From NCBI RefSeq assembly GCF_056712565.1, contig NZ_CM160072.1: a stretch of 64,000 nt of DNA. One strand, 5' to 3'. The notes beneath the pieces were generated by a model. The model saw only the letters and a program-made list of their open reading frames with translations, searched no databases and was not told where the DNA came from. This document shows, piece by piece, positions 19,588 to 64,000 of this stretch (positions are counted from its first letter, which is position 1; each line of letters starts with the position of its first letter). The translations under genes and the position numbers were made by a program.

Positions 19588-19674
19588 GTAGGCCGGATAA
19601 GGTGCTTGCACCGCATCCGGCATCAACGTCTGCACATTGTCGGATGCGACGCCGGGGCGTCTTATCCGACCTAC
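19588..19674. repeat. BIME: two inverted REP units between phnE and phnD
   Basis: gtaggccggataaggtgcttgcaccgcatccggca and tcggatgcgacgccggggcgtcttatccgacctac. Confidence 0.8.
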
Positions 19675-22083: not shown

Positions 22084-22148
22084 GATGGTGACCTCAGTTA
22101 AGAGAAGCCCGTTAAGTGTAGTTCGAAATTTATACAGATGAGAGGGAA

Positions 22149-22228
<80 letters not shown>

Positions 22229-27850: not shown

Positions 27851-27961
27851 GCTGAAACGGATGGCCTGATGTGACGCTGTCTAATCAGGTCAATTGAACT
27901 CTTAAGGTTCACTTAATCTCTGACGCGCATACTCTCCTCCAGGTTAACGGAGGAGAGTGCA

Positions 27962-28051
27962 ATGAAAAACCGTGTTTATGAAAGTTTAACTACCGTGTTC
28001 AGCGTGCTGGTGGTCAGCAGCTTTCTTTATATCTGGTTTGCCACGTACTGA
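27962..28051 (+). CDS. pmrR: Small membrane protein PmrR (29 aa)
   Basis: Short ORF MKNRVYESLTTVFSVLVVSSFLYIWFATY preceded by ggagga RBS; single hydrophobic helix; overlaps basS 3' end antisense. Below the 60-aa cutoff of the ORF track. Confidence 0.6.
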   Translation: MKNRVYESLTTVFSVLVVSSFLYIWFATY

Positions 28052-29118
28052 TCTTTTTTCAGCCGTATCCAGGCCCGCGTGCCGGAAGTCTCTTGCCGGT
28101 TTTGCAGGAAAAACTGCCCGTGATGCAACTGTGTAATGCGGCTGACAATACTTAACCCCAGACCAATCCCGCCATAACGGCTGTCCATTCGTACAAACGC
28201 TTTACTCAACTCCCCGCATTTACTCTCATCAATACCCGGCCCTTCATCTTCAACGGCCATGACCGCTCCGCCATCTTCTTGCAGCTTAATCATAATGTTG
28301 CTGCCTTGTGGGCTATAACGATGGGCGTTTTCTACCAGGTTTCGCAATAACATCCGCAGCAGGGTTGCATCACCCTGAACGGTGATGTCGGCGGCGCTCT
28401 CTGGCAATAGCAGGGTTTGCTGGCGCTGGTCGAGCATGGTACTAAGTTCGTCATACGAGGGGAGAATGACATCTTCCAGCAGTTTTACATGTTGATAATT
28501 ACCGGAAGAAAATGACTGTCCGGCACGCGCCAGTTGCAGCAGCTGGGAGACGCTCTCCATCATCTGATCAAGTCGTGCCACTAACGGTGCTACATCAATG
28601 TGATGCGTTTTCGCCAGCAGTTCCAGATGCAAACGCACCCCCGCCAGTGGTGTTCGCAGTTCGTGCGCGACGTCAGCGGTAAACAACCTTTCGTTATCCA
28701 GCGTGCTGGTCAGGCGACTGACCAGATCGTTTAACGCCGAAACCACCGCATCGATTTCGAGGGTGGCGCTATGAATGGCAATGGGCGTTAAGTTATCGGC
28801 GGTGCGCGCTTCCAGCTCTTTTTGCAGCTCCGCCAGCGGTCGGGTGATGCGGCGTACCGCCTGATAGCAGATAAATAGCGTCAGGCTAACCATAAAGACG
28901 CCGGGGACAATCAGGCTGGCGACCGCCTCGCGGATCTCACGCATGATGTGGCGATCGTTGTTGCGATTGTCGCGTAGCGCCTGCTCAAACAGCTGAATCT
29001 GCTCGGTACTTTCATGCCACAGCCAGAAGACGCTGATCAGCTCAAACACCAACAAAATGGCCCCGATGGTCAATATCAGCCGTTGGCGCAGCGATATTGG
29101 TCGGCGCAGAAAACGCAT
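28027..29118 (-). CDS. basS: Sensor histidine kinase BasS (PmrB)
   Basis: ORF 28027..29127; start at MRFLRRPISLRQRL; HAMP, H-box HELRTPL, ATPase domain. Confidence 0.92.
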   Translation of the reverse strand: MRFLRRPISLRQRLILTIGAILLVFELISVFWLWHESTEQIQLFEQALRDNRNNDRHIMREIREAVASLIVPGVFMVSLTLFICYQAVRRITRPLAELQKELEARTADNLTPIAIHSATLEIDAVVSALNDLVSRLTSTLDNERLFTADVAHELRTPLAGVRLHLELLAKTHHIDVAPLVARLDQMMESVSQLLQLARAGQSFSSGNYQHVKLLEDVILPSYDELSTMLDQRQQTLLLPESAADITVQGDATLLRMLLRNLVENAHRYSPQGSNIMIKLQEDGGAVMAVEDEGPGIDESKCGELSKAFVRMDSRYGGIGLGLSIVSRITQLHHGQFFLQNRQETSGTRAWIRLKKDQYVANQI

Positions 29119-37767: not shown

Positions 37768-39123
37768 ATGATGTCTGCACCCAAAATTACATTTATCGGC
37801 GCTGGTTCGACGATTTTCGTTAAAAATATTCTTGGTGATGTGTTCCATCGAGAGGCGCTGAAAACGGCGCATATTGCCCTGATGGATATCGATCCCACCC
37901 GCCTGGAAGAGTCGCACATTGTGGTGCGTAAGCTGATGGATTCAGCAGGGGCCAGCGGCAAAATCACCTGCCACACCCAACAGAAAGAAGCCTTACAGGA
38001 TGCTGATTTTGTGGTGGTGGCATTTCAGATTGGCGGTTATGAACCTTGCACGGTGACTGATTTCGAGGTCTGTAAGCGGCATGGTCTGGAACAAACCATT
38101 GCCGATACGCTGGGGCCGGGCGGCATTATGCGTGCGCTACGTACCATTCCGCACCTGTGGCAGATTTGCGAGGACATGACGGAAGTCTGCCCCGATGCCA
38201 CCATGCTCAACTACGTTAATCCAATGGCGATGAATACCTGGGCGATGTATGCCCGCTATCCGCATATCAAGCAGGTAGGGCTGTGCCATTCGGTGCAGGG
38301 AACGGCGGAAGAGCTGGCGCGTGACCTCAATATCGACCCGGCTACGCTGCGTTACCGTTGCGCAGGTATCAACCATATGGCGTTTTACCTGGAACTGGAG
38401 CGCAAAACCGCCGACGGCAGTTACGTGAATCTCTACCCGGAACTGCTGGCGGCTTATGAAGCAGGGCAGGCACCGAAGCCAAATATTCATGGTAATACTC
38501 GCTGCCAGAATATTGTGCGTTACGAAATGTTCAAAAAGCTGGGCTACTTCGTCACAGAATCGTCAGAACATTTTGCTGAGTACACACCGTGGTTTATTAA
38601 GCCAGGTCGTGAGGATTTGATTGAGCGTTATAAAGTACCGCTGGATGAGTACCCGAAACGCTGCGTCGAGCAGCTGGCGAACTGGCATAAAGAGCTGGAG
38701 GAGTATAAAAACGCCTCCCGGATTGATATTAAACCGTCACGGGAATATGCCAGCACAATCATGAACGCTATCTGGACTGGCGAGCCGAGTGTGATTTATG
38801 GCAATGTCCGTAACGATGGCTTGATTGATAACCTGCCACAAGGATGTTGCGTGGAAGTGGCCTGTCTGGTTGATGCTAATGGCATTCAGCCGACCAAAGC
38901 CGGTACGCTACCTTCGCATCTGGCCGCCCTGATGCAAACCAACATCAACGTACAGACGCTGCTGACAGAAGCTATTCTTACGGAAAATCGCGACCGTGTT
39001 TACCACGCCGCGATGATGGACCCGCATACTGCCGCCGTGCTGGGCATTGACGAAATATATGCTCTTGTTGACGACCTGATTGCCGCCCACGGCGACTGGC
39101 TGCCAGGCTGGTTGCACCGTTAA
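37768..39123 (+). CDS. melA: Alpha-galactosidase MelA (GH4, NAD/Mn-dependent)
   Basis: 451-aa ORF MMSAPKITFIGAGSTIFVKNILGDV..., Rossmann GAGS motif. Confidence 0.93.
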   Translation: MMSAPKITFIGAGSTIFVKNILGDVFHREALKTAHIALMDIDPTRLEESHIVVRKLMDSAGASGKITCHTQQKEALQDADFVVVAFQIGGYEPCTVTDFEVCKRHGLEQTIADTLGPGGIMRALRTIPHLWQICEDMTEVCPDATMLNYVNPMAMNTWAMYARYPHIKQVGLCHSVQGTAEELARDLNIDPATLRYRCAGINHMAFYLELERKTADGSYVNLYPELLAAYEAGQAPKPNIHGNTRCQNIVRYEMFKKLGYFVTESSEHFAEYTPWFIKPGREDLIERYKVPLDEYPKRCVEQLANWHKELEEYKNASRIDIKPSREYASTIMNAIWTGEPSVIYGNVRNDGLIDNLPQGCCVEVACLVDANGIQPTKAGTLPSHLAALMQTNINVQTLLTEAILTENRDRVYHAAMMDPHTAAVLGIDEIYALVDDLIAAHGDWLPGWLHR

Positions 39124-39770
39124 GGGGTAATCGCTTCCGGCGCTCTGGTGATTAAGCCAAAGCGCCGTAGCTGGCGGCAATGAAAGCGGGCGAGGAATAT
39201 CACCGTCGTTAATGCGCCCAGTAGTGCGCAGAACATATCGGATTGCGTATCCCACGGGTCGCCTTGAGTACCGAGAAAATCATCTGCGCCCTGGCCCATT
39301 GCCAGCGCTGCCCACCACTCGATTAACTCATACATCGCGCTTATCGCCAGCGCGACACAACAGACCAGAAACGCCACCATTTTACGCCCGCGAACGTACA
39401 TCCCGCGCACGAGGATCTCTCGTGCCACCAGTGCAGGCACCAGCCCCTGGAAAAAATGCCCCAGTTTATCATACGGATTACGGCTCAACCCCAGCCATTC
39501 CTGCACCTCAAAACCAACGGGGACTTTCGCGTAGGTGTATTGCCCGCCGACCATCAGGATGATGGCGTGAAAGAAAATGAGCGTATAGAGCAGCGGCGTT
39601 AACGGGTAACGTTTAGCGGTGGCAAGCAGTAGCGGCACGACAATAATCACCGGTGTCACTTCCATCAGCCAGGTGAGTTTGTCATGGGCCGAAATGCCGG
39701 TATAAATCAGGATTAACGTTAGCGCCAGTGCGCCGGTGTTAAGAATTAACGGCTTGAGTGTGCGGGTCAT
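39120..39770 (-). CDS. yjdF: Inner membrane protein YjdF
   Basis: 216-aa hydrophobic ORF; its stop codon overlaps the melA stop; true start may be a few codons downstream. Confidence 0.8.
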   Translation of the reverse strand: MTRTLKPLILNTGALALTLILIYTGISAHDKLTWLMEVTPVIIVVPLLLATAKRYPLTPLLYTLIFFHAIILMVGGQYTYAKVPVGFEVQEWLGLSRNPYDKLGHFFQGLVPALVAREILVRGMYVRGRKMVAFLVCCVALAISAMYELIEWWAALAMGQGADDFLGTQGDPWDTQSDMFCALLGALTTVIFLARFHCRQLRRFGLITRAPEAITP

Positions 39771-46297: not shown

Positions 46298-46570
46298 ATG
46301 GAAATACGCGAAGGCCACAATAAATTTTACATTAATGACGAACAAGGCAAGCAAATCGCTGAAATTGTCTTTGTGCCGACCGGAGAGAATTTAGCGATTA
46401 TCGAACATACCGATGTCGATGAAAGCCTGAAAGGGCAAGGGATTGGTAAACAGCTGGTTGCGAAAGTCGTGGAAAAAATGCGTCGGGAAAAACGAAAAAT
46501 TATCCCACTATGCCCATTTGCGAAACACGAATTTGATAAAACACGGGAGTATGATGATATTCGCAGTTGA
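46298..46570 (+). CDS. yjdJ: Small GNAT-family acetyltransferase YjdJ
   Basis: 90-aa ORF with GQGIGKQL acetyl-CoA-binding motif. Confidence 0.8.
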
Positions 46571-46797
46571 TGGGAGAGTACAGAGTCACGATATTTTTCA
46601 TGCTCTCCGCGGTGTGATGCAGGAGAGCATCTGAAGGGTAGGGGGATGCACAAAGAATGGTCAGAGAGAGCGTTTTTTTGTCCCAAGTCATCCCCTTTAC
46701 TGAGCAAAAAAAAAGAATATCTCCTATATGAGAATCATCATTCGGGGTTAATAAGTTTTGCGTCCCCAGAGCGTTCAATATTGATAGGAGTCATATT

Positions 46798-47094
46798 ATG
46801 GAAGGTAAAAACAAGTTCAATACTTATGTTGTTTCTTTTGATTATCCATCATCTTATTCCTCAGTGTTCTTAAGGTTAAGATCATTGATGTATGATATGA
46901 ATTTCTCCTCTATCGTGGCTGATGAATATGGGATACCACGACAATTGAATGAAAACTCCTTCGCAATAACGACATCGTTAGCCGCAAGTGAAATCGAAGA
47001 TTTAATCAGGCTCAAATGCTTAGACTTACCGGATATTGATTTTGACCTCAGCATTATGACAGTTGATGACTATTTCCGTCAGTTTTACAAGTAG
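46798..47094 (+). CDS. ghoS: Type V antitoxin GhoS (endoribonuclease)
   Basis: 98-aa ORF MEGKNKFNTYVVSFDYPSSYSSVFLRL...; immediately upstream of ghoT. Confidence 0.85.
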   Translation: MEGKNKFNTYVVSFDYPSSYSSVFLRLRSLMYDMNFSSIVADEYGIPRQLNENSFAITTSLAASEIEDLIRLKCLDLPDIDFDLSIMTVDDYFRQFYK

Positions 47095-47121
47095 CCAGGA
47101 AGGATAAGAAGAACATAAAAA

Positions 47122-47295
47122 ATGGCACTATTCTCTAAAATATTAATTTTTTATGTGATTGGTGTGAACATATCCTTTGTCATTATCTGGTTTATCTCAC
47201 ATGAGAAAACACATATTCGTTTACTTAGTGCATTTCTGGTCGGAATAACCTGGCCAATGAGTCTTCCTGTGGCATTACTTTTTTCTCTCTTTTAG
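47122..47295 (+). CDS. ghoT: Small membrane toxin GhoT (57 aa)
   Basis: Short ORF MALFSKILIFYVIGVNISFVIIWFISHEKTHIRLLSAFLVGITWPMSLPVALLFSLF, two hydrophobic helices; below the ORF-track cutoff. Confidence 0.75.
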   Translation: MALFSKILIFYVIGVNISFVIIWFISHEKTHIRLLSAFLVGITWPMSLPVALLFSLF

Positions 47296-47370
47296 GAGCT
47301 GTAGTTGAGTGGACCCGCTGGTTATCTTGAAACGAAGCGTCTCTCCTCAAAACTGGATTTGCGGAATGAC

Positions 47371-47400
47371 GAACGAAGCAGTCGCCTGACTGCTTCGTTC
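47371..47400. terminator. 13-bp stem-loop between convergent ghoT and lysU
   Basis: gaacgaagcagtc / gactgcttcgttc with 4-nt loop; no clear T-tract. Confidence 0.35.
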
Positions 47401-47413
47401 ATTAAAGTGAAAT

Positions 47414-48931
47414 TTATTTCTGTGGGCGCATCGCCGGGAAGAGAATAACGTCGCGAATAGTATGACTGTTTGTAAACAGCATAATCATTCGGTCGATACC
47501 AATACCCAGACCAGCGGTTGGCGGCAGACCATATTCCAGCGCAGTCACGTAATCTTCGTCATAGAACATGGCTTCGTCGTCACCTGCAGCTTTAGCGTTA
47601 ACCTGTTCCTGGAAACGTTCAGCCTGATCTTCTGCGTCGTTTAATTCGCTAAAACCATTACCGATTTCACGACCACCGATGAAGAATTCAAAACGGTCGG
47701 TGATTTCCGGGTTAACATCATTACGGCGCGCCAGCGGGGACACTTCTGCCGGATATTCCGTAATAAAGGTTGGCTGAATCAGATGTGCTTCTGCCACTTC
47801 ATCAAAGATCTCCGTAACAATACGTCCCAGTCCCCAGCTTTTCTCTACCGTAATACCGATAGATTCAGCTAATGCTTTAGCAGCATCAAAATTATCCAGA
47901 TCCGCCATATCGGTTTCTGGACGATATTTTTTGATTGCTTCGCGCATGGTGAGTTTTTCAAACGGTTTGCCGAAATCAAACACATGCTCGCCATAAGTGA
48001 CTTTAGTGGTACCCAGTACCTCTTGTGCCAGGGTGCGGAACAGTGACTCCGTCAGTTCAATCAAATCGTGGTAATCCGCATATGCCATGTAGAGTTCCAT
48101 CATTGTGAACTCAGGATTATGGCGAACAGAAATACCTTCATTACGGAAGTTACGGTTGATTTCGAATACCCGTTCAAAACCGCCTACAACCAGACGTTTC
48201 AGATACAGCTCCGGCGCGATACGCAGGTACATATCTAAATCCAGAGCGTTATGATGGGTAATAAACGGGCGAGCAGATGCCCCACCTGGAATTACCTGCA
48301 TCATCGGGGTTTCTACTTCCATAAAGCCGCGCGCGACCATGAACTGACGGATAGCGGCCAGAATTTTTGAACGGACAACAAACGTTTGACGGGATTTATC
48401 GTTAGCGATGAGGTCCAGATAACGTTGACGATAACGGACTTCCTGATCCTGCAGACCATGGAATTTATCTGGTAAAGGACGTAGTGCTTTAGTCAGCAGG
48501 CGCAGCTCAGTACAGTGAATGGAAAGCTCACCCGTTTGCGTCTTAAACAGCGTACCGCGGGCACCGATAATGTCACCCAGATCCCATTTTTTAAACTGAT
48601 CGTTATAAACACCTTCTGGCAGGCTATCTCTTGCAACGTACAGTTGAATACGGCCACCGACATCCTGCAACGTTACAAAGGAGGCTTTCCCCATAATACG
48701 ACGGGTCATCATTCGGCCAGCAACCGAGACTTCAATGTTTAAGGATTCCAGTTCCTGGTTATCCTTCGCATCAAACTCTTCGTGCAACTGGTCAGAGGTA
48801 TGGTCGCGGCGAAAATCATTGGGAAACGCCACACCTTGCTGACGTAGTGCCGCCAGTTTTTCGCGGCGATTTCTCAGTTCATCGTTAAAATCAATAGCCT
48901 CATTGGCTCCCCGTGTTTCTCGTTCAGACAT
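47414..48931 (-). CDS. lysU: Lysyl-tRNA synthetase, inducible form LysU
   Basis: ORF 47414..48958; start at [12 protein letters not shown] (cat 48929-48931); class II aaRS. Confidence 0.93.
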
Positions 48932-54610: not shown

Positions 54611-56149
54611 TTATTCTGAAGCGAGAAATTTGTCGAGATAAGGTACAACATAAGGAACAGAAGTCTGGAATATACCATTTTCAATCCAGTAAAGGGTGTT
54701 TGCCCCTGGGCGTAAATTAAAGGCGGTGAGATATGCATCAGCTGCTTCCCGGTTCATCCCCTTCATTTCATAAACCTTGCCAAGCAACACATAATTTAGC
54801 CAGGACATTTCAAGATCAATGCCGGTATTTATCGCCTGATAAGACTCATCTGTTTTACCTTTTACCAGGGCACTGACCGCTTTTATTTGATATATAATGG
54901 ACAGGTTGTTCAATTCCGGCAGTGTAACAATGTTATCTATTTCTGTGTTCAGTGCTGCTAATTGTTTTTCGTCTAAAGGATGTTGAGAATGGCGCACGAT
55001 ATCAACTAATGCTTTTTCTGCTCTCGCGTAGGTAAATTCTGGGGATGATTGAACAATCTCACCTAATAATTCACTGGCACGATCCAATGATTTATCATCA
55101 CCATGCAGTAAATAATCATGTGCCTGATAAAAATTAGTTAATAACGCACCACGATGCGGCAAAATTTGCTGGAGCATCTCCTGCATTCGTTGTGGCCACG
55201 GTTGGTTTAACGCTTTTGATAAACTCTGGAGCAAATCATTTTGAATCGCCAGCTGATTACCGTTAGTGATGACATAACGTTTATCCAGCATGGTTGAACC
55301 ATCTGCATTGTCTACCAATTTTACCGACATAAAGCATTGTTGAGCACGGTATTGGCGCTGATTAACAAACGCAATAGATAATGTTTTACCGGAACTGCTC
55401 GGTTCATCAATGTTGTAGTTGATTTTGTCATGCACCATAAAGGTGGAGAAGGTGTTAAGTGATGTCGCCACCAAATCACCCACGCCTATCGCGTAAGAGA
55501 GCTGATACGGAGAACTCCAGCTGTTACAACTCTTATTAACCATATTAATGTCAATATCGCGTGGATTGAGCAAAATGCGCGATTTACTCATAGGAAGACG
55601 TGTTTCAAGACTTGAAAACGCTACCAGTGCGACACAGATACCTAACGACAACAGGAAAAAAAACCATACCCAAAAGGTAGTGAATCGTTTGCTTTTAACT
55701 GGGGATTGTTCAGGTGGCGTTGTGGTGTTTTGAATGTTAAGACTGTGGGAGGGAGAATCTGTGGCAGGAACCGCCTCTGGTATAGGGGGAGGCGAAGATA
55801 GCATTATTTCCTCTCCCTCTTCTTCGCTGTACCAGATAACCGGCACCATTAATTTATAGCCGCGCTTTGGTACAGTAGCGATATAGACAGGACTATCTTC
55901 ATCATTATCTTTTAATGACTTACGTAGTTCTGAGATACTCTGCGTCACAACGTGATTGGTGACAATACTTCTCTTCCAGACATTATCGATAAGTTCATCC
56001 CTGCTAAGTACTTCGCCACTGTGTTGAGCAAAGAAAACCAGAAGATCGATTAATCTCGGCTCAAGGGTAAGTTGACGCCCATTGCGGCTAATTTGGTTTA
56101 TGGACGGAGTAACAAGCCATTCGCCAACGCGAACTACAGGTTGTTGCAT
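54611..56149 (-). CDS. cadC: Membrane-integrated ToxR-like activator CadC
   Basis: 512-aa ORF; N-terminal winged-helix domain, one TM, periplasmic sensor. Confidence 0.94.
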   Translation of the reverse strand: MQQPVVRVGEWLVTPSINQISRNGRQLTLEPRLIDLLVFFAQHSGEVLSRDELIDNVWKRSIVTNHVVTQSISELRKSLKDNDEDSPVYIATVPKRGYKLMVPVIWYSEEEGEEIMLSSPPPIPEAVPATDSPSHSLNIQNTTTPPEQSPVKSKRFTTFWVWFFFLLSLGICVALVAFSSLETRLPMSKSRILLNPRDIDINMVNKSCNSWSSPYQLSYAIGVGDLVATSLNTFSTFMVHDKINYNIDEPSSSGKTLSIAFVNQRQYRAQQCFMSVKLVDNADGSTMLDKRYVITNGNQLAIQNDLLQSLSKALNQPWPQRMQEMLQQILPHRGALLTNFYQAHDYLLHGDDKSLDRASELLGEIVQSSPEFTYARAEKALVDIVRHSQHPLDEKQLAALNTEIDNIVTLPELNNLSIIYQIKAVSALVKGKTDESYQAINTGIDLEMSWLNYVLLGKVYEMKGMNREAADAYLTAFNLRPGANTLYWIENGIFQTSVPYVVPYLDKFLASE

Positions 56150-56720
56150 AATAGAAACTCATTCGAAAAGGGAATGATGCAATGATAATTGCCATAACCT
56201 ATTTTTTCCATCTATAGATGGGTTTATTTACATATTATTGGTGAATGTAGGACGTTATTTTTACCCGCCATAAACTTCTTGATTACATAGTATTACGAAA
56301 GGATTTTACTGAGAACCAGAAGTAATTTTCCTTACCATCAAAATTCATCATCTTTGCCAAAGAAAAATGTTCAGAAAATAATCCATGAAAAATTGTCCGG
56401 AGCGCTTACTATTTTAATGGATTGTTAGTCTTTGCATGAGCAAACGGACTGATACATTTCTCTTTGTTCTCATTCAGAAAATCTCATCAGTTGGCGTTCT
56501 GCCCGATGTTGTGCTTTATGGGTGCGTTACGCTCCTGATGACGTCATTTGACGTTCAACAGCATCACGGGGCCGCACGACATTTCACGTCAGTCAGCGCT
56601 ATAGCTCAGAAACAAATTTTCCCGAATTGGGATATGCCCGCAAATTGCTGGTGATGTGGGGAGAATCTGGTTGAGTTCGGTAGAATTGATTTGGCGGCAG
56701 GACGCTTAAATCGTGGCGTC

Positions 56721-56756
56721 CTGAAACGAAAAACGGACCTCCGTGGAGGTCCGTTT
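56721..56756 (-). terminator. Rho-independent terminator native to the tRNA-Phe locus
   Basis: Minus-strand AAACGGACCTCC-AC-GGAGGTCCGTTT followed by TTTTTCGTTT; lies just 3' of the tRNA-Phe 3'-end copy. Confidence 0.65.
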
Positions 56757-56765
56757 ATATGAATT

Positions 56766-56787
56766 TGGTGCCGGACTCGGAATCGAA
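56766..56787 (-). repeat. Degenerate copy of the 3' end of tRNA-Phe: att-site direct repeat marking the island boundary
   Basis: tggtgccggactcggaatcgaa is the reverse complement of the last 23 nt of E. coli tRNA-Phe (TTCGATTCCGAGTCCGGGCACCA) with one C missing; no upstream tRNA body follows. Confidence 0.75.
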
Positions 56788-56980
56788 TATTTTATTTATC
56801 ATATTGATATTGATGTGATTTATTTGGTTTGGTGAAAAATGTACCCTCTTTTGTACCCTCAGTCCCTTTTGCTGTGAAAAAGGAATCAAACCCGGGAGTT
56901 GGAAGATGAGGTGAAAAGGGGGACGCATAAAGGGATTCACCTTAACAGCGTACTACTGTTAAGGTGGGAGGACCATCTCA

Positions 56981-57544
56981 TTATCCCCACCGGTCCCATC
57001 TCACCAGGTTGTTGATGATAATTTTATTACTAAATTTGCAGGGCGGCCTGGTTTTGTAATCCCGGCTCAGTCCTCTGAAGGCATTGATCTCCCCCCGCTC
57101 AAACAGCTCATCCTTATTCTGGTGCAGTTGTTTAAATGTGCTCAGAATGTTCGCTTCGCTGATTTCCGGAAAATTATCATATTCCAGTGACCTGAACCCT
57201 GTATCACGTGCCTGTGCATCCATTAAGGAAAACATCCCGGAACGCTGCATCAGGTTACGCCAGATTTCGCGCTCAAGATTCCGGGTAATGGCTTTCATTG
57301 CTGTTTCTGGTTTCTCCATCATCCAGCAACCACAGCGAAAATTCTGTTTCATCGCCCAGTCCGGGGCGGCTTTACCGCCAATATTTTCCGTCAGTGCTGA
57401 GATTTCTGTCAGTTGCCGGATAAGCGTGTCGATTTGCAGTAGTGTACTCTTTCGTACAGCCAGGATGTGTCTGATACTTGTGGAACAGATAACGGCTGTA
57501 TGCCCGTTGACCGCGTTCGGGTGGGGGATTGTGATATCTGACAT
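56981..57544 (-). CDS. Hypothetical island-terminal protein (possibly DUF4942-like)
   Basis: 187-aa ORF, last gene before the island boundary; family assignment uncertain. Confidence 0.45.
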   Translation of the reverse strand: MSDITIPHPNAVNGHTAVICSTSIRHILAVRKSTLLQIDTLIRQLTEISALTENIGGKAAPDWAMKQNFRCGCWMMEKPETAMKAITRNLEREIWRNLMQRSGMFSLMDAQARDTGFRSLEYDNFPEISEANILSTFKQLHQNKDELFERGEINAFRGLSRDYKTRPPCKFSNKIIINNLVRWDRWG

Positions 57545-57628
57545 TATGAGGTTTCCTTTCTGTTTATAAACGAAAACGCCAGCCCTGTTCAGGCTGGCGT
57601 CAGGAGAATGGAGTCTGGTGAGTGAGAT

Positions 57629-58051
57629 TCACCGGTTCTGGTGCATAAGTTGCAGTTGGTGCAGGGTACGGATATCCTCCCTGGCCTGTTCAATACAGGG
57701 CAGCAGTGCTGCCGAATCCGTTTTATCCTCATCGTTGTCGAAAATAATTCCGGACCCGCAGTCGATATTGTCCTGCAGCCACGCAATGAGGATATCCAGC
57801 GCTGTTTCAGTGGTTAATGGCATCACGCTCTGTATCACTGTATTGTCTTCCGGCAACTGATGAGGGCTGGCATAAGTTGCCGGTGTTTCGGTAGAGTCAC
57901 GGTCATCCACCACGCGGAGTGAATCACCGTTTTCAGCGGCCTTATTAATCAGTTCAGCGAGATTAACACCATCAATGTCAACGACAATTCGCCCCATATT
58001 CAGTGCCTGTACGTTAACGCTGTCGGCTTCCGGCGTCAGGGAAAGTTTCAT
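57629..58051 (-). CDS. YeeW-like protein
   Basis: 140-aa ORF immediately downstream of, and overlapping by 4 nt, the CbtA-like toxin gene. Confidence 0.6.
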   Translation of the reverse strand: MKLSLTPEADSVNVQALNMGRIVVDIDGVNLAELINKAAENGDSLRVVDDRDSTETPATYASPHQLPEDNTVIQSVMPLTTETALDILIAWLQDNIDCGSGIIFDNDEDKTDSAALLPCIEQAREDIRTLHQLQLMHQNR

Positions 58052-58425
58052 TGTTTCACCTCCGGGTGCTTACCCAGGATAATATTATTTACCGTTCTGT
58101 AATTGTCGCGGGTCATCAGGCCGGTCGCCCTGCGAGCCCGGAGGATATCAATACTGTTTATTAACTGAGAACGGGTACAGGCGCTGAATCCCGGCTGGTC
58201 GGTACGTACCAGTGCGTATTTTTCAACGAGAAAGTTCACCGCATCGCACAGTGAAATGCCTGCCTCAATATGCTGCTCAATCACACGTTCATCAGCGAAC
58301 GGTGTGTCATTCAGCGTAAGGCCGTAGTGCTGATCCAGCAGTCGGGTGAGCAGTGTCTGCCAGATTTCAACCGGAGACGGGCGTGAACTGGCCGCCTGCC
58401 CGGGTAATACAGGTAATGTTTTCAT
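58048..58425 (-). CDS. CbtA-family toxin (YeeV/YkfI/YpjF-like, type IV TA)
   Basis: 125-aa ORF MKTLPVLPGQAASSRPSPVEIWQTLLTRLLDQHYGLTLNDTPFADERVI... Confidence 0.8.
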   Translation of the reverse strand: MKTLPVLPGQAASSRPSPVEIWQTLLTRLLDQHYGLTLNDTPFADERVIEQHIEAGISLCDAVNFLVEKYALVRTDQPGFSACTRSQLINSIDILRARRATGLMTRDNYRTVNNIILGKHPEVKQ

Positions 58426-58513
58426 ACTGAAGATTTTCCTGATATGCAGAGATGAAAAATGGAAAAGTGGCGTGGTGAAAGCACCAGGCCGAGCAGAAGG
58501 TTATTCTGGAGAG

Positions 58514-58882
58514 TTACTTTTTCGTTTCGGGCGTCGGATAAACAGCCATATAAACGTAGCCACAACTGCCGAGGGTGTCGGCTTCGCAGGTCAGCCCTTT
58601 TGCATACAGCGTGACGGTATGCTGATGGCGGGGATTCAGTTCACCGCTGGTGAGCATGAGTTCCAGTTGTTTCATCAGCAGCGGAAAGGCCTGGTCCAGG
58701 TGGTACGAATCCGCGTCGCTGAACCGCCCTCTGATACCGGCGCGGTCGGCAAGGTAATGCAACCGGTTGCCTTCCTGTACCAGACGGGCACCAAAACAGG
58801 GCGTCACGGTGCAGGGCAGTCCCCACCAGGTACGGTCGTTATTGTCGTCGGGAAGCGTTGTCCCGGGGAGTGTGTCTGACAC
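58514..58882 (-). CDS. CbeA-family antitoxin (YeeU/YafW/YfjZ-like)
   Basis: 122-aa ORF MSDTLPGTTLPDDNNDRTWWGLPCTVTPCFGARLVQEGNRLHYLADRAGI..., immediately upstream of the toxin. Confidence 0.8.
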   Translation of the reverse strand: MSDTLPGTTLPDDNNDRTWWGLPCTVTPCFGARLVQEGNRLHYLADRAGIRGRFSDADSYHLDQAFPLLMKQLELMLTSGELNPRHQHTVTLYAKGLTCEADTLGSCGYVYMAVYPTPETKK

Positions 58883-58961
58883 GATAAAATCCTCACAGAA
58901 AATTGGTTAAGAATGGTCCGGTGGTGGCGATAATTCTGCTCTTCTGAATGCCCTTCCAGAC

Positions 58962-59183
58962 TCAGTTCAGGGTGACGCTCATCAGCCGGACATACGGACC
59001 AAAACTGTCCTTCCGGCGTTCTGCAAACACGGCCAGCACACAGGGAATATCCTGTACTTCACGGCCGGTATATGTATCCGTGCTACCGTGCCAGCGGTAT
59101 TTACCGGTACAGAACGGAAAAAGACGGGATGCAGGATGCTGACGGTGAATACGCATGGCTTCACCACGGGTGATGATTTTCAT
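58962..59183 (-). CDS. DUF987 protein (YeeT-like)
   Basis: 73-aa ORF in the conserved position between the RadC-like and CbeA genes. Confidence 0.65.
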   Translation of the reverse strand: MKIITRGEAMRIHRQHPASRLFPFCTGKYRWHGSTDTYTGREVQDIPCVLAVFAERRKDSFGPYVRLMSVTLN

Positions 59184-59269
59184 GAGAATAGTCCTCCTGA
59201 ATGTGAAAGTAAGAAACAGCTGAGAAAGAGAAACTGAAGTGATATGAAGGTGATTGTGACGGTGACGGG

Positions 59270-59746
59270 TTAAAGCAGACCGTGTTCCGCAAAGGAGAAA
59301 ACCTGGCTGCCACCGACTATCAGATGGTCCGGCACCCGGATATCCACCAGGCCCAGTGCCTGTACCAGACGTTCCGTGATAAGGCGGTCTGCCTTGCTGG
59401 GTGTGACTTCACCGGACGGGTGATTGTGTGCCAGCACCACAGCAGCGGCATTGTGATACAGGGCGCGTTTAATCACTTCCCGGGGATGGACTTCCGTGCG
59501 GTTGATGGTGCCGGTGAAGAGGGTTTCACCGGCAATCAGCTGATTCTGGTTGTTCAGATACAGCACCCGGAACTCTTCCCGCTCCAGTCCCGCCATGTTC
59601 AGAATCAGCCATTCTCGTGCCGCACGGGTGGAGGTGAAGGCCACGCCGGGTTCATGAAGATGGCGGTCCAGGGTTTTCAGGGCCCGTTGAATGAGGCTGC
59701 GCTCACCGGGCGTCATTTCTCCGGGCAGAAAGGAAATCTGTTGCAT
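59270..59746 (-). CDS. RadC-like JAB-domain protein (YeeS/YkfG/YfjY-like)
   Basis: 158-aa ORF with JAMM/MPN motif HNHPSGEVTPSKAD. Confidence 0.8.
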   Translation of the reverse strand: MQQISFLPGEMTPGERSLIQRALKTLDRHLHEPGVAFTSTRAAREWLILNMAGLEREEFRVLYLNNQNQLIAGETLFTGTINRTEVHPREVIKRALYHNAAAVVLAHNHPSGEVTPSKADRLITERLVQALGLVDIRVPDHLIVGGSQVFSFAEHGLL

Positions 59747-59760
59747 TGTTCCGGCCCCTT

Positions 59761-60240
59761 TCAGTCAATGATGCGCATAATGGCGCTGCATTCCGGATGC
59801 TGCAGGGCGTAATCCCGCAGCCGGTAATAATGGACCGTCATGGCATAACATTCCGTACGACAGGCATGATGGCTGTACGTCATCAGACAGGCGGCAATAC
59901 CGGCAGCTTCCGGACTCATTTCAGCGCGGTTACCGTTCATGGCATTGAACAGTACCCATGTTTCGTCATCATCGTCATCCGGTTCAGGTGCCATAAATGC
60001 GCCACCGTTGTTCAGGGTGTACAGATTCCAGATGCCCCCGCAGTAGTCTTCGCACAGACGGTCCATCCAGCCGAAGACACGGGGCTCCAGGGTCACCCAC
60101 TGTGGAATGAGGCCAAAATGCTGCGGCCAGAAGCTGATACGTTGTTCATCAGGGACGGGAGTAGCAACCAGTTGGGGCTGGTTATTCCCTGGTGCTGTGG
60201 CTGAAGAAAGAGCAGTTGTGTTCTGAGAAACGATTTTCAT
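59761..60240 (-). CDS. Antirestriction protein (ArdB/KlcA-like)
   Basis: ORF 59761..60312; start at MKIVSQNTT (cat 60238-60240); ISFWPQHFGLIPQWVTLEP...GGIWNLYTLNNGGAFMAPE. Confidence 0.75.
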   Translation of the reverse strand: MKIVSQNTTALSSATAPGNNQPQLVATPVPDEQRISFWPQHFGLIPQWVTLEPRVFGWMDRLCEDYCGGIWNLYTLNNGGAFMAPEPDDDDDETWVLFNAMNGNRAEMSPEAAGIAACLMTYSHHACRTECYAMTVHYYRLRDYALQHPECSAIMRIID

Positions 60241-60505
60241 GAGTGAAATCCTTACAATGTGTATAAATGAGAGGAAATAAAGGCCGGGGGCTGACAACAT
60301 CACGTTCATCACTGACCGTGAGACCCGGCAATATCAGGGATGAATGATATTCGGCTGAAATTCCGGACAGCCGTACGCGTAACCGTTCCGGTCACAGACG
60401 GATGGCCAGAAGATGCCATTGCCTGTACTCAGTCTGCACAGACTGAGTTCTCCGGGGCGTCGGGTGATTCTGGTGCCTGAATCACGCCTTCAGGGACAGA
60501 TTGCA

Positions 60506-61324
60506 TCAGCGCAGGCTCTCCAGTAGCGTTTCTGCCATCACCCACAATGCGCGATTGAGCTTAATGCCGGTGTCGATGCTGTGAATGGCACGGGTGTGGA
60601 TACGTTTTCCTCTGGCACTGCGACCGGAAATTCCGCCTTTTAGCATATTCTCCTGGATGGTCTGATAAGTACTCCACAGGTCCTTACCGTAATCCTCCCG
60701 GCGTCGTGGCGTCAGAATGTCGGCGGTGGTGACGGGCTGATGTTCGTCACCATAACGGTAAGTCAGTGCCGCCTGTGCCAGCGCCTGGCGTGTCGGTGGC
60801 GGCAGGACCAGCGACTGCATGGCATCACGCTTCTCCTCTATCCGGTCAAACACGCCCACCACCTCGTAAGCCCCTTCAATAACTTTCTCCACCACATTTC
60901 CCCGGTGTGGAACACGCAATTCTCCCAGAGACTGACCGCAGACCAGTCCATTGGTACAAATGGCACGAAAATATCCGGGTAACATCTGGTAGCTGGATGA
61001 ACCGTCATGGGAGTTGAGCAGAATAATTTCAGGCACATGCTGACCGGTTATCTGTCCGGCCCGCCGCAGACGCAGCATATGTTTGGTATATTCCCGGCGG
61101 CTCTGGTCGCGCACACGGGTCTGGCAGGCGAAGAACGGCTGAAAGCCTTCCCGCTGCAGATTTTCCAGGACGGTGATGGTGGGAATGTACGCATACCGTT
61201 CACTGCGGGAGGTGTGCCGGTCTTCTCCAAAAATACTCGGGACGTGGTACATCAGTTCTTCGCGTGTCAGTGGGCGCTCCCGACGGATCTGATTTACATG
61301 ACCAAAACGACTGGCTAATTGCAT
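60506..61324 (-). CDS. DUF932-family protein (YfjQ/YafZ-like)
   Basis: 272-aa ORF; length and position typical of CP4-type islands. Confidence 0.65.
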   Translation of the reverse strand: MQLASRFGHVNQIRRERPLTREELMYHVPSIFGEDRHTSRSERYAYIPTITVLENLQREGFQPFFACQTRVRDQSRREYTKHMLRLRRAGQITGQHVPEIILLNSHDGSSSYQMLPGYFRAICTNGLVCGQSLGELRVPHRGNVVEKVIEGAYEVVGVFDRIEEKRDAMQSLVLPPPTRQALAQAALTYRYGDEHQPVTTADILTPRRREDYGKDLWSTYQTIQENMLKGGISGRSARGKRIHTRAIHSIDTGIKLNRALWVMAETLLESLR

Positions 61325-61413
61325 ACTTTGCTCCTTATGAATGAATTAGCGGTATAAACGAAAAGGCCGCGTCTCCCGGAGAAGACGCGGCCTGATGGAT
61401 GAAATGAAGACGT

Positions 61414-61647
61414 TTATTGCCTGAGAATTCCCTCACTGGCGAGATACGAATTTAGCTGTTTTCCGGCATCAGGTTCAAAATTCCAGCACCGCCAGCGTAG
61501 CTGCCCTTCGGCATTGCGGATAACCAGCCGGAAATGCGTTCCCTGGTCATCTTCAATAAGCACATTGCGGTAAGCTGTTGTGATGACAACCGCCTGTTCG
61601 CGTGAGAAAGGGCCTTCGGGCAATAAAACAGGGCGACAGTCCAACAT
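61414..61647 (-). CDS. DUF905-like small protein
   Basis: 77-aa [62 protein letters not shown]... Confidence 0.55.
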
Positions 61648-61652
61648 ACCGG

Positions 61653-62330
61653 CTATTTTCCGATAAATTCAACGCTGGCGCCGGTGGCATTACCGTCAGC
61701 ACCAACCGTGACGGTCACTTTGTCGTACGCACGGTCTTCAGGATTGAATACTTCAAACTCAACCTTATTGCCTTTTACTTCGTAAGAGCCAAAATCAGCG
61801 GTTTCTGTTGTTTCCTCGTCGTATTTCCGGGCGTATGCCTGTCGGGCAGCCTGCAGTACGGAGTCTTTATTAATAGTGGTCGTCTGTTTCGGGGAAAAAA
61901 CGGCAAGTGATGTGACAAATTTCGGACAGACCTTCAGCATATCACCGCGGGTGAATTCCATTCGTACACCAAATGCCTGTAAAACGGACACATCACGCTC
62001 TGCTATGGAGTGAACGGCTTTTTTGACCATTTCCGACGCCTGTTCGGCTTCCACCTCAACAGCCCTGAATCCCGTCTGCTGATTACACATTTGTGATGTG
62101 GGGATCAGGTTACCGTTAATACTGATACGGCTGCCCAGGAGCGTCTGTACGCCATTCGGGCATCCCTGCATCAGGCCGGTAATACCAATCGTGCCATTTT
62201 TCAGCATTACCAGCGCCTGACCATCTTCCGTCATGGTCTGGCACCAGCCGTTTTTGACAGCCCAGTTACCGGCGGAGGCGGAGAAGGATGCAACAGTGAA
62301 AAGCAGGGGAAAAAGAGTTCTGGTATTCAT
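61653..62330 (-). CDS. Putative secreted/periplasmic protein of unknown function
   Basis: ORF 61653..62438; start at [20 protein letters not shown] (cat 62328-62330), a signal peptide. Confidence 0.55.
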
Positions 62331-62480
62331 GACTGACCTCTGAAATGAACGTACGGTGTTATTGATAATGATGGAAGGTATGCAGTGACTGTTCAGGAAA
62401 TGACGTAATAGCCATATATTTAGTTTTCTGTTCAACATATTGTCTCCATACCTGTCGGGACGGCTTTGGCAGGCCGGCGA

Positions 62481-63161
62481 TCACAGGTTAAAGGTGTTGA
62501 TAAGTTTATGGATGAAAGAGAAATGTGGCAGGGCGGAGATAAAACGCTCTTCAGCGACCAGATTGTGGATGTGGCCTCTCCGTTCAAACCGTTCTGATGT
62601 CAGGCTGACTGATTTGATATCTGCCAGGGGAAAGACCTGCAGTTTTCCCTTCTGTAACGCGATCAGATACCAGCTTCCGCTGTAATAAATGAGCCGGCAG
62701 GGCTCCAGTGACGTATACCATCGCTCAGTCATCAGCGAGATGTGGATACACTGTTTTATTGCCAGGATGAGTTGCGAGAAACACTCGGGGAACGTTGCAG
62801 TGATATCCGGCGCCGGTAGCCAGATAAGGCAGGGAGAGGGCTCCTGGTTGTCGGTAAGACAGGTTATCAGTCGTCCGTTCCGGAGCGGAAGTATCCGTGC
62901 GATCCCGGTATTCTGTATAAAAGAAAGCATTTCAGGGATCGCACACGGGCTGCTCTGTCGTCTGAGGCTGTACCTGCCATTTCTGTACTCTAAATCCAGG
63001 TGAACCAGACGCTGATGAAAATCGCGCTGTAAAGTACGTTCTGTAACGCCAAATTCATCTGACAGTGTCTTTAGTGACAGAGATTCTCCGGCCATCAGTC
63101 GGCTGATAATGAGTGATAAGCGAACCGCCAGACGATCATGCCGGGAACGATCATCAGACAT
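62481..63161 (-). CDS. HTH + WYL-domain transcriptional regulator (YfjR-like)
   Basis: 226-aa ORF; N-terminal HTH and WYL signature IYYSGSWYLIA. Confidence 0.7.
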   Translation of the reverse strand: MSDDRSRHDRLAVRLSLIISRLMAGESLSLKTLSDEFGVTERTLQRDFHQRLVHLDLEYRNGRYSLRRQSSPCAIPEMLSFIQNTGIARILPLRNGRLITCLTDNQEPSPCLIWLPAPDITATFPECFSQLILAIKQCIHISLMTERWYTSLEPCRLIYYSGSWYLIALQKGKLQVFPLADIKSVSLTSERFERRGHIHNLVAEERFISALPHFSFIHKLINTFNL

Positions 63162-63363
63162 AGATGTGTACTCCGTAAGAAAACATCTTTTATTTCATGA
63201 TGTTATTATGCCTCATGGTGTTGAAAGGATGTGTCGTATCTGAATAATCAGGAATAAAATGCAGCAGAAAAAATATTCCTTTAATTATCTGATTTTTAAT
63301 GATGATTTCATAAAAAGAAGAATACTCGTTAATCCAGCGACACATCCTGTCGGCGTGAGTGTG

Positions 63364-64000
63364 TCAGAACAGACGATCCCACAGTGTTTCCAGCAGGCGG
63401 ATAATGCGGTCCCGGGCTTTACGCAGAAGCTGTAACATCCAGACCGGAAAAGTGAACCGGGCAACGGCGTCGTCAAAACTTTTCCCGATGGCGTCACCAA
63501 AAGTCTGTTGTGCGTGTTTCTGGGCCTGTTCAGAGCGGTTTTCCCCCCGGATATGTGAATAAACCGCACTGGTTGCCTGCGGTGGCAGGGCGTGGATCAT
63601 CAGCGACACAAACGCCGGAAGATTCCAGCCGACAGGCGCAGCAACGGGGAGTACCGGAAATGATGACGGGAACAGGGTTGCCACCCTGGCTGTAACAGTT
63701 GCCAGTGAGAGTTCCTGGTGACGGGATGGGCATTTTTCTGTGGCATTCCATTCTTCAGCAGGAAACACGCGATCGGCATGGCTGAGAACAAACAGAAAAC
63801 GCGAGGGATCTGCACCTTCATTCAGTAAAAACTGATGCATGGCAATATCGGCAGCATACGCACGTTCATCAGCCCGCAGGATCCAGATAATCAGATCCAG
63901 TTCCGGCAGTAACTGACGGTAAATCTCCCGGTATTCCTGATCATGCTGCGGTGTCTCACCAATGCCGGGCAGATCGACCAGCGTCATTCTGCGTTCACCA
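63364..64000 (-). CDS. YeeP/YkfA/YfjP-like GTPase, C-terminal part; 5' end lies beyond the window
   Basis: Minus-strand frame open to the window edge; contains DLPG (G3-like) motif, but the N-terminal P-loop would lie upstream. Confidence 0.6.
   Translation of the reverse strand, partial: GERRMTLVDLPGIGETPQHDQEYREIYRQLLPELDLIIWILRADERAYAADIAMHQFLLNEGADPSRFLFVLSHADRVFPAEEWNATEKCPSRHQELSLATVTARVATLFPSSFPVLPVAAPVGWNLPAFVSLMIHALPPQATSAVYSHIRGENRSEQAQKHAQQTFGDAIGKSFDDAVARFTFPVWMLQLLRKARDRIIRLLETLWDRLF

Follow-up and report, generated by a model that had tools for sequence, protein, structure and literature searches.

A 64-kb stretch of DNA (the window) carries at 46798-47295 two short genes that an earlier note, written from the sequence alone, had read as a ghoST type V toxin-antitoxin pair of the core chromosome. 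Two questions follow from this reading: whether the pair really is ghoST, and what would release the toxin in a strain of this lineage. The first can be answered with little reservation, as the pair is almost certainly the chromosomal ghoST of E. coli, the operon on which the type V class of toxin-antitoxin systems was founded, in a strain of B2 type near ATCC 11775. The second leads to the absence of mqsRA, the system that sets off GhoT in K-12, from its K-12 site in this lineage.

Identity of the two genes

The upstream gene, ghoS (yjdK), occupies 46798-47094 on the + strand, where the ORF list of the window gives an ATG start and 98 codons, so that the proposed 98-aa antitoxin gene is borne out. 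Its product matches Pfam PF11080 with 138 bits (gathering cutoff 21, E 1.1e-40) over positions 6-93 of the 94 in the profile, and 97 of its 98 residues are identical to those of PDB 2LLZ chain A, the solved K-12 YjdK/GhoS, with N85S as the sole change. R28, L25 and M31 are all retained, and the gene differs from that of MG1655 by two bases, one of which gives N85S. The RefSeq protein is WP_001312331.1, with the name 'type V toxin-antitoxin system endoribonuclease antitoxin GhoS'. This near-identity to a solved and characterised protein settles the assignment, and the description of the product as a 98-aa Cas2-like endoribonuclease antitoxin is supported, with RNA cleavage itself to be expected from the literature.

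The toxin gene, ghoT (yjdO), follows at 47122-47295 on the same strand, with an ATG start and 57 codons in the ORF list. Its product covers the whole of PF10753 (Toxin_GhoT_OrtT; profile positions 1-55 of 55) with 90.4 bits (gathering cutoff 22.1, E 8.9e-26) and is identical at 57 of 57 residues to K-12 b4559, with two synonymous nucleotide differences in the coding sequence; RefSeq names it 'toxin GhoT' (WP_001173343.1). A Kyte-Doolittle profile places hydrophobic segments at approximately residues 3-25 and 34-57, with the polar loop SHEKTHIR between them, in agreement with the two-helix membrane peptide that had been predicted, and F38, the residue changed in the F38R variant that served as mutant control in published work (PMC4344625), is retained. 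Its 57 aa do keep the gene below the ORF tool's default of 60 aa, as the earlier note had observed. Its further remark that the toxin is easy to miss in automated annotation is only partly right: the tag b4559, which sits between b4128 and b4129, suggests that ghoT was a late addition to the K-12 annotation, but all 41 of the different RefSeq records listed with the region, taken from the best and from evenly spread samples, annotate both genes, so that the remark no longer applies to current pipelines.

Both frames are short, and the spacer in which they lie, from yjdJ to lysU, is rich in AT; we therefore considered whether they could be chance frames. The G+C content of approximately 35% over the pair, compared to 45-54% in the flanking genes, would speak for such an origin, given that AT-poor-stop contexts favour long ORFs, and so would a 57-aa ORF under the usual length cutoffs. 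Against this stand the two Pfam E-values, the identity of the first protein to 2LLZ and the pattern of conservation: compared to K-12, the coding sequences carry 4 changes in 471 nt, whereas the upstream spacer carries 6 substitutions and 1 indel in 227 nt and the downstream spacer 3 changes in 118 nt, so that the coding sequences of the pair are better conserved than what flanks them. A chance origin of the pair is ruled out by the Pfam E-values, and this explanation was rejected. The low G+C content is compatible with an old acquisition of a locus that is now effectively core.

The nearest known system is therefore K-12 GhoS/GhoT itself (YjdK/YjdO, b4128/b4559), with which the window pair shares, besides the near-identical proteins and a 27-nt spacer, the gene order, the neighbours, the stem of a 3' hairpin and the distribution of GCU sites; it differs in N85S, in four silent or near-silent nucleotide changes and in belonging to a lineage without mqsRA at the K-12 site. 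A scan with NCBIfam gave no model matching GhoS or GhoT, and tblastn found no second copy of either within the window. OrtT (YdcX), an orphan toxin that also falls in PF10753, is a paralogue of GhoT and, like it, a small toxin of the membrane with a pair of hydrophobic segments, and tblastn with GhoT recovered annotated ortT and copies of the GhoT/OrtT family at 56-67% identity from plasmid-labelled records of Escherichia, Salmonella and Pantoea. OrtT stands without a GhoS partner, GhoS does not neutralise it, and it has GCU sites (PMC4344625); the window gene, by contrast, is 100% GhoT and has ghoS directly upstream. GhoS has also been described as a structural homologue of the CRISPR-Cas protein Cas2 with conserved catalytic residues (PMC4010927), but no CRISPR array or cas gene lies near ghoST, and GhoS, unlike Cas2, acts as an mRNA-specific antitoxin.

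Expression signals and the hairpin at the 3' end

The region between yjdJ and ghoS (46571-46797, + strand) is, on our reading of the sequence, the presumed site of the ghoST promoter and 5' UTR, and includes a Shine-Dalgarno sequence, AGGAG, at 46786-46790, 7 nt ahead of the ghoS ATG. The spacer between the two genes, CCAGGAAGGATAAGAAGAACATAAAAA (47095-47121, + strand), measures the 27 nt that had been claimed and is the same in K-12; the purine-rich sequence that it offers ghoT for ribosome binding is weak or distant. The sole + strand match in a promoter consensus scan, at 46533-46561, lies inside the 3' end of yjdJ, and the four promoter-like matches in the region are no excess over the 3.2 +/- 1.8 found in shuffles, so that the ghoST promoter was not located. 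Folding of the ghoS-ghoT junction (47060-47140) gave no structure beyond that of shuffles (z = +0.34).

As the size and hydrophobicity of GhoT resemble those of type I toxins, a different arrangement can be envisaged in which a small RNA, antisense to ghoT or encoded nearby, takes the place of the GhoS protein in holding ghoT in check, and ghoS only happens to lie next to it. Hok and TisB are likewise short hydrophobic inner-membrane peptides that collapse the proton-motive force, and two overlapping promoter-like matches lie on the - strand within ghoT (47168 to 47140/47139). These two are among the four matches that shuffled sequence yields as readily, and Rfam gave no match in the ghoST locus when the whole window was searched at gathering thresholds, nor in 46400-47500 at E <= 1, which leaves no known sRNA or cis-element there. 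Moreover, type I toxins are opposed by an antisense RNA, whereas the antitoxin of ghoST is an RNase protein whose gene precedes that of the toxin on the same strand, and the published GhoS protein neutralises GhoT through mRNA cleavage (PMC4344625, PMC4010927). We regard control of the type I kind as very improbable, and the type V reading is kept.

The stretch from the ghoT stop (47295) to that of lysU (47414) contains a hairpin at 47371-47400, GAACGAAGCAGTC-gcct-GACTGCTTCGTTC, which has 13 perfect pairs and a 4-nt loop; a 13-bp stem-loop separating the pair from lysU had been noted at this place, and it is confirmed to the base. Its fold energy is -22.9 kcal/mol on the + strand (z = -5.6 relative to shuffled sequence) and, with 15 pairs, -24.4 kcal/mol on the - strand, that of lysU (z = -6.3). 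A terminator scan found no terminator-like site at the hairpin, and no T-run follows the stem on either strand, so that it is not a canonical intrinsic terminator. The hairpin stem is the same in K-12. Base 47370 is C in the window and T in K-12 (near position 4156 of locus L002), and the + strand stem measures 13 bp in the window compared to 16 bp in K-12, whereas on the lysU strand a G-U pair keeps the stem at 15 bp in both. The constancy of the lysU-strand stem beside the variable + strand stem hints that the hairpin of the lysU strand is the conserved one. The element probably serves as a shared 3'-end structure of the convergent ghoST and lysU transcripts, marking or stabilising their ends. 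The convergent gene itself, the ORF ending at 47414, was assigned as lysU, as the earlier note had it, by synteny with K-12 b4129; the PGAP label of this lysyl-tRNA synthetase gene is 'lysS', and its position says lysU.

Chromosomal setting and distribution

The pair stands in the order dcuR-dcuS-yjdI-yjdJ-ghoS-ghoT-lysU-dtpC-cadA, which is common to the window, MG1655 and ATCC 11775. Over its 64 kb the window is 99.994% identical to the type strain of E. coli, ATCC 11775, from which 3 mismatches and 1 gap set it apart, and the 9 kb surrounding the pair are 98.5% identical to K-12. The host is a phylogroup-B2-type strain, essentially ATCC 11775, in which ghoST is already known and named in RefSeq. 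Taken together, the Pfam matches above threshold, the near-identity to the K-12 proteins and the shared order, spacer and neighbours establish the ghoST type V identity that had been proposed, and no feature of the sequence speaks against it.

Placing the pair in the core chromosome is also fair. Of 5426 complete E. coli genomes, 5321 (98%) contain the 721-bp ghoST region, 5267 of them at a coverage of at least 80%, and 5349 of its 5352 placements are on chromosomes. No homologue of GhoS or GhoT was found in the phage collection. The plasmid collection gave nine GhoS matches, all in E. coli records typed as non-mobilizable, and eight of these records are chromosome-sized, from 373 kb to 4.9 Mb long. 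We also inspected NZ_CP048307.1 (locus L010; p009_C, 94 kb, labelled 'plasmid'), which carries fumB-dcuB-dcuRS-yjdIJ-ghoST-lysU-dtpC-cadAB; the record probably reflects an error of assembly or labelling, or else a piece of the chromosome that was excised. A mobile-element origin of ghoST was rejected, as the plasmid records are chromosome-sized or, in the one inspected, a chromosomal segment under a plasmid label, and the phage collection has no copies.

The locus can be lost. In E. coli 13P484A (locus L003, 6101-7221) an IS1A replaces the stretch from just upstream of ghoS to tRNA-Phe, and this IS1-mediated natural deletion has removed ghoST, lysU, dtpC and cadABC; natural loss of the whole ghoST locus is tolerated, as this strain demonstrates.

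Several other features of the window were recorded. melB, for melibiose permease, is missing at the junction of melA and yjdF (39124-39143): K-12 bases 4268-5932 (locus L009), which include all of melB, are replaced by approximately 20 nt, so that melA (~37768-39123) and yjdF (~39120-39770) abut, as annotated in ATCC 11775. alsC, the D-allose ABC permease gene at ~4958-5939 (+ strand), carries a pseudogene annotation, with an internal stop, in the record of the near-identical ATCC 11775. Past cadC (54611-56149, - strand), a CP4-type island remnant with an integrase fragment lies within 56400-64000 and holds a second toxin-antitoxin pair, the type IV cbtA with a YeeU-family antitoxin, together with antirestriction, JAB/RadC-like, DUF932, WYL and GTPase genes (examples from the remnant lie at 58048-58425 and 58514-58882, both on the - strand). 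The window has no tRNA genes, although pheU flanks cadC in K-12-like strains. Rfam matches above the gathering score are STnc630 at 27893-28058 (+ strand), directly 3' of proP, and two copies of the REP-derived naRNA4, one at 19591-19671 (+ strand) in the phnE-phnD gap and one at 22148-22225 (- strand) in the yjdN-yjdM gap.

Release of GhoT in a lineage without mqsRA at its K-12 site

K-12 GhoS/GhoT is the founding type V system (Wang et al. 2012, Nat Chem Biol 8:855, via PMC4010927 and PMC4344625). GhoS has a Cas2-like fold with R28 as the key residue and cuts ghoT mRNA specifically, with approximately 20 other mRNAs reported as cleavage targets; GhoT is found at the poles and causes 'ghost' cells (PMC4010927). 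GhoT damages the membrane and lowers ATP, which GhoS counters by cleaving the ghoT transcript, and ghoT mRNA is devoid of the GCU sites that MqsR prefers (PMC4344625). MqsR degrades the 5' part of the transcript, which encodes GhoS, and the ghoT part is enriched as a consequence (PMC11783221). Most of the published evidence on toxicity was obtained by overexpression in the K-12 system of a single laboratory; from an independent group, CRISPRi under gentamicin found knock-down of ghoS to be far costlier than that of ghoT (PMC12282077).

The toxin of the window is identical to that of K-12 and the antitoxin differs at one residue, and on this ground we infer RNA cleavage, toxicity and membrane damage for the window pair from the K-12 work. 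Both genes would be co-transcribed, as published for K-12, and a stable GhoS would leave the toxin protein unbound and cut the ghoT part of the mRNA, keeping GhoT low. Once the supply of GhoS falls, GhoT would be translated and inserted in the inner membrane via its two hydrophobic helices, where it would dissipate the proton-motive force and ATP and slow growth, with lysed 'ghost' cells expected upon overproduction. In K-12 the drop in GhoS comes from MqsR cutting at GCU sites, which ghoS has and ghoT lacks. The window pair has the same distribution, with three GCT sites in ghoS (nt 121, 213 and 221, positions as in K-12) and none in the ghoT coding sequence, again as in K-12. However, 10% of mononucleotide shuffles of ghoT also contain no GCT, so that the asymmetry is weak evidence when taken alone.

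MqsR itself seems to be missing from the lineage. In ATCC 11775, ygiV is followed by ygiS after a gap of 108 nt with no mqsRA between them (locus L006, 19023-19132). The related B2 strain IHE3034 covers 86% of a K-12 query running from parC to qseB, a coverage like that of other records which list ygiS and ygiV without mqsA or mqsR. Among the 5426 complete E. coli genomes mqsRA DNA is found in 2298 (42%), compared to the 5321 with ghoST. As mqsRA is absent from its site in ATCC 11775, the K-12 cascade from MqsR to GhoT probably cannot operate in the strain of the window. The gap is not a new question, since it has already been raised for the B2 strain NRG857c, which has ghoST at the same locus as K-12, HS and CFT073: MqsRA is absent there, so that other mechanisms must control ghoT, and transcription of ghoT responds to acid and to macrophage conditions (PMC7232551).

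One way to account for this is that the genes are true ghoS and ghoT orthologues but no stress-released switch in a lineage without MqsRA, with GhoT a low-level membrane protein that is harmful only when overproduced and GhoS a housekeeping RNase with other targets. The further mRNAs reportedly cleaved by GhoS would fit such a role, as would the natural loss seen in 13P484A, the ghoT response of NRG857c in the absence of MqsRA, and the presence of ghoST in 98% of genomes when mqsRA is missing at the ATCC 11775 site and from 58% of genomes. Yet the pair has been kept together across E. coli, the 27-nt spacer unchanged and the two proteins nearly so, and the greater cost of ghoS knock-down under gentamicin is what is expected if GhoS restrains GhoT. 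We consider a pair without a switch unlikely.

In a lineage without mqsRA at the K-12 site the release of GhoT must depend on something else, which could be transcriptional or ppGpp control or another RNase. That ghoST occurs in 98% of genomes and MqsR, its only described activator, in 42% suggests that the general trigger may differ from MqsR. It is about an even call, in our judgement, whether the ancestral and general trigger of GhoT is not MqsR but, for instance, transcription that responds to ppGpp or acid, or a different RNase that takes away the ghoS portion of the mRNA, with the K-12 cascade being a lineage-specific add-on.

As a discovery the pair carries little weight, being a textbook locus, and it may serve as a positive control, in that a 57-codon toxin gene under the length cutoff was recognised together with its partner from raw sequence. 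Its sole biological interest lies in the fact that ghoST is kept in lineages without the MqsR trigger.
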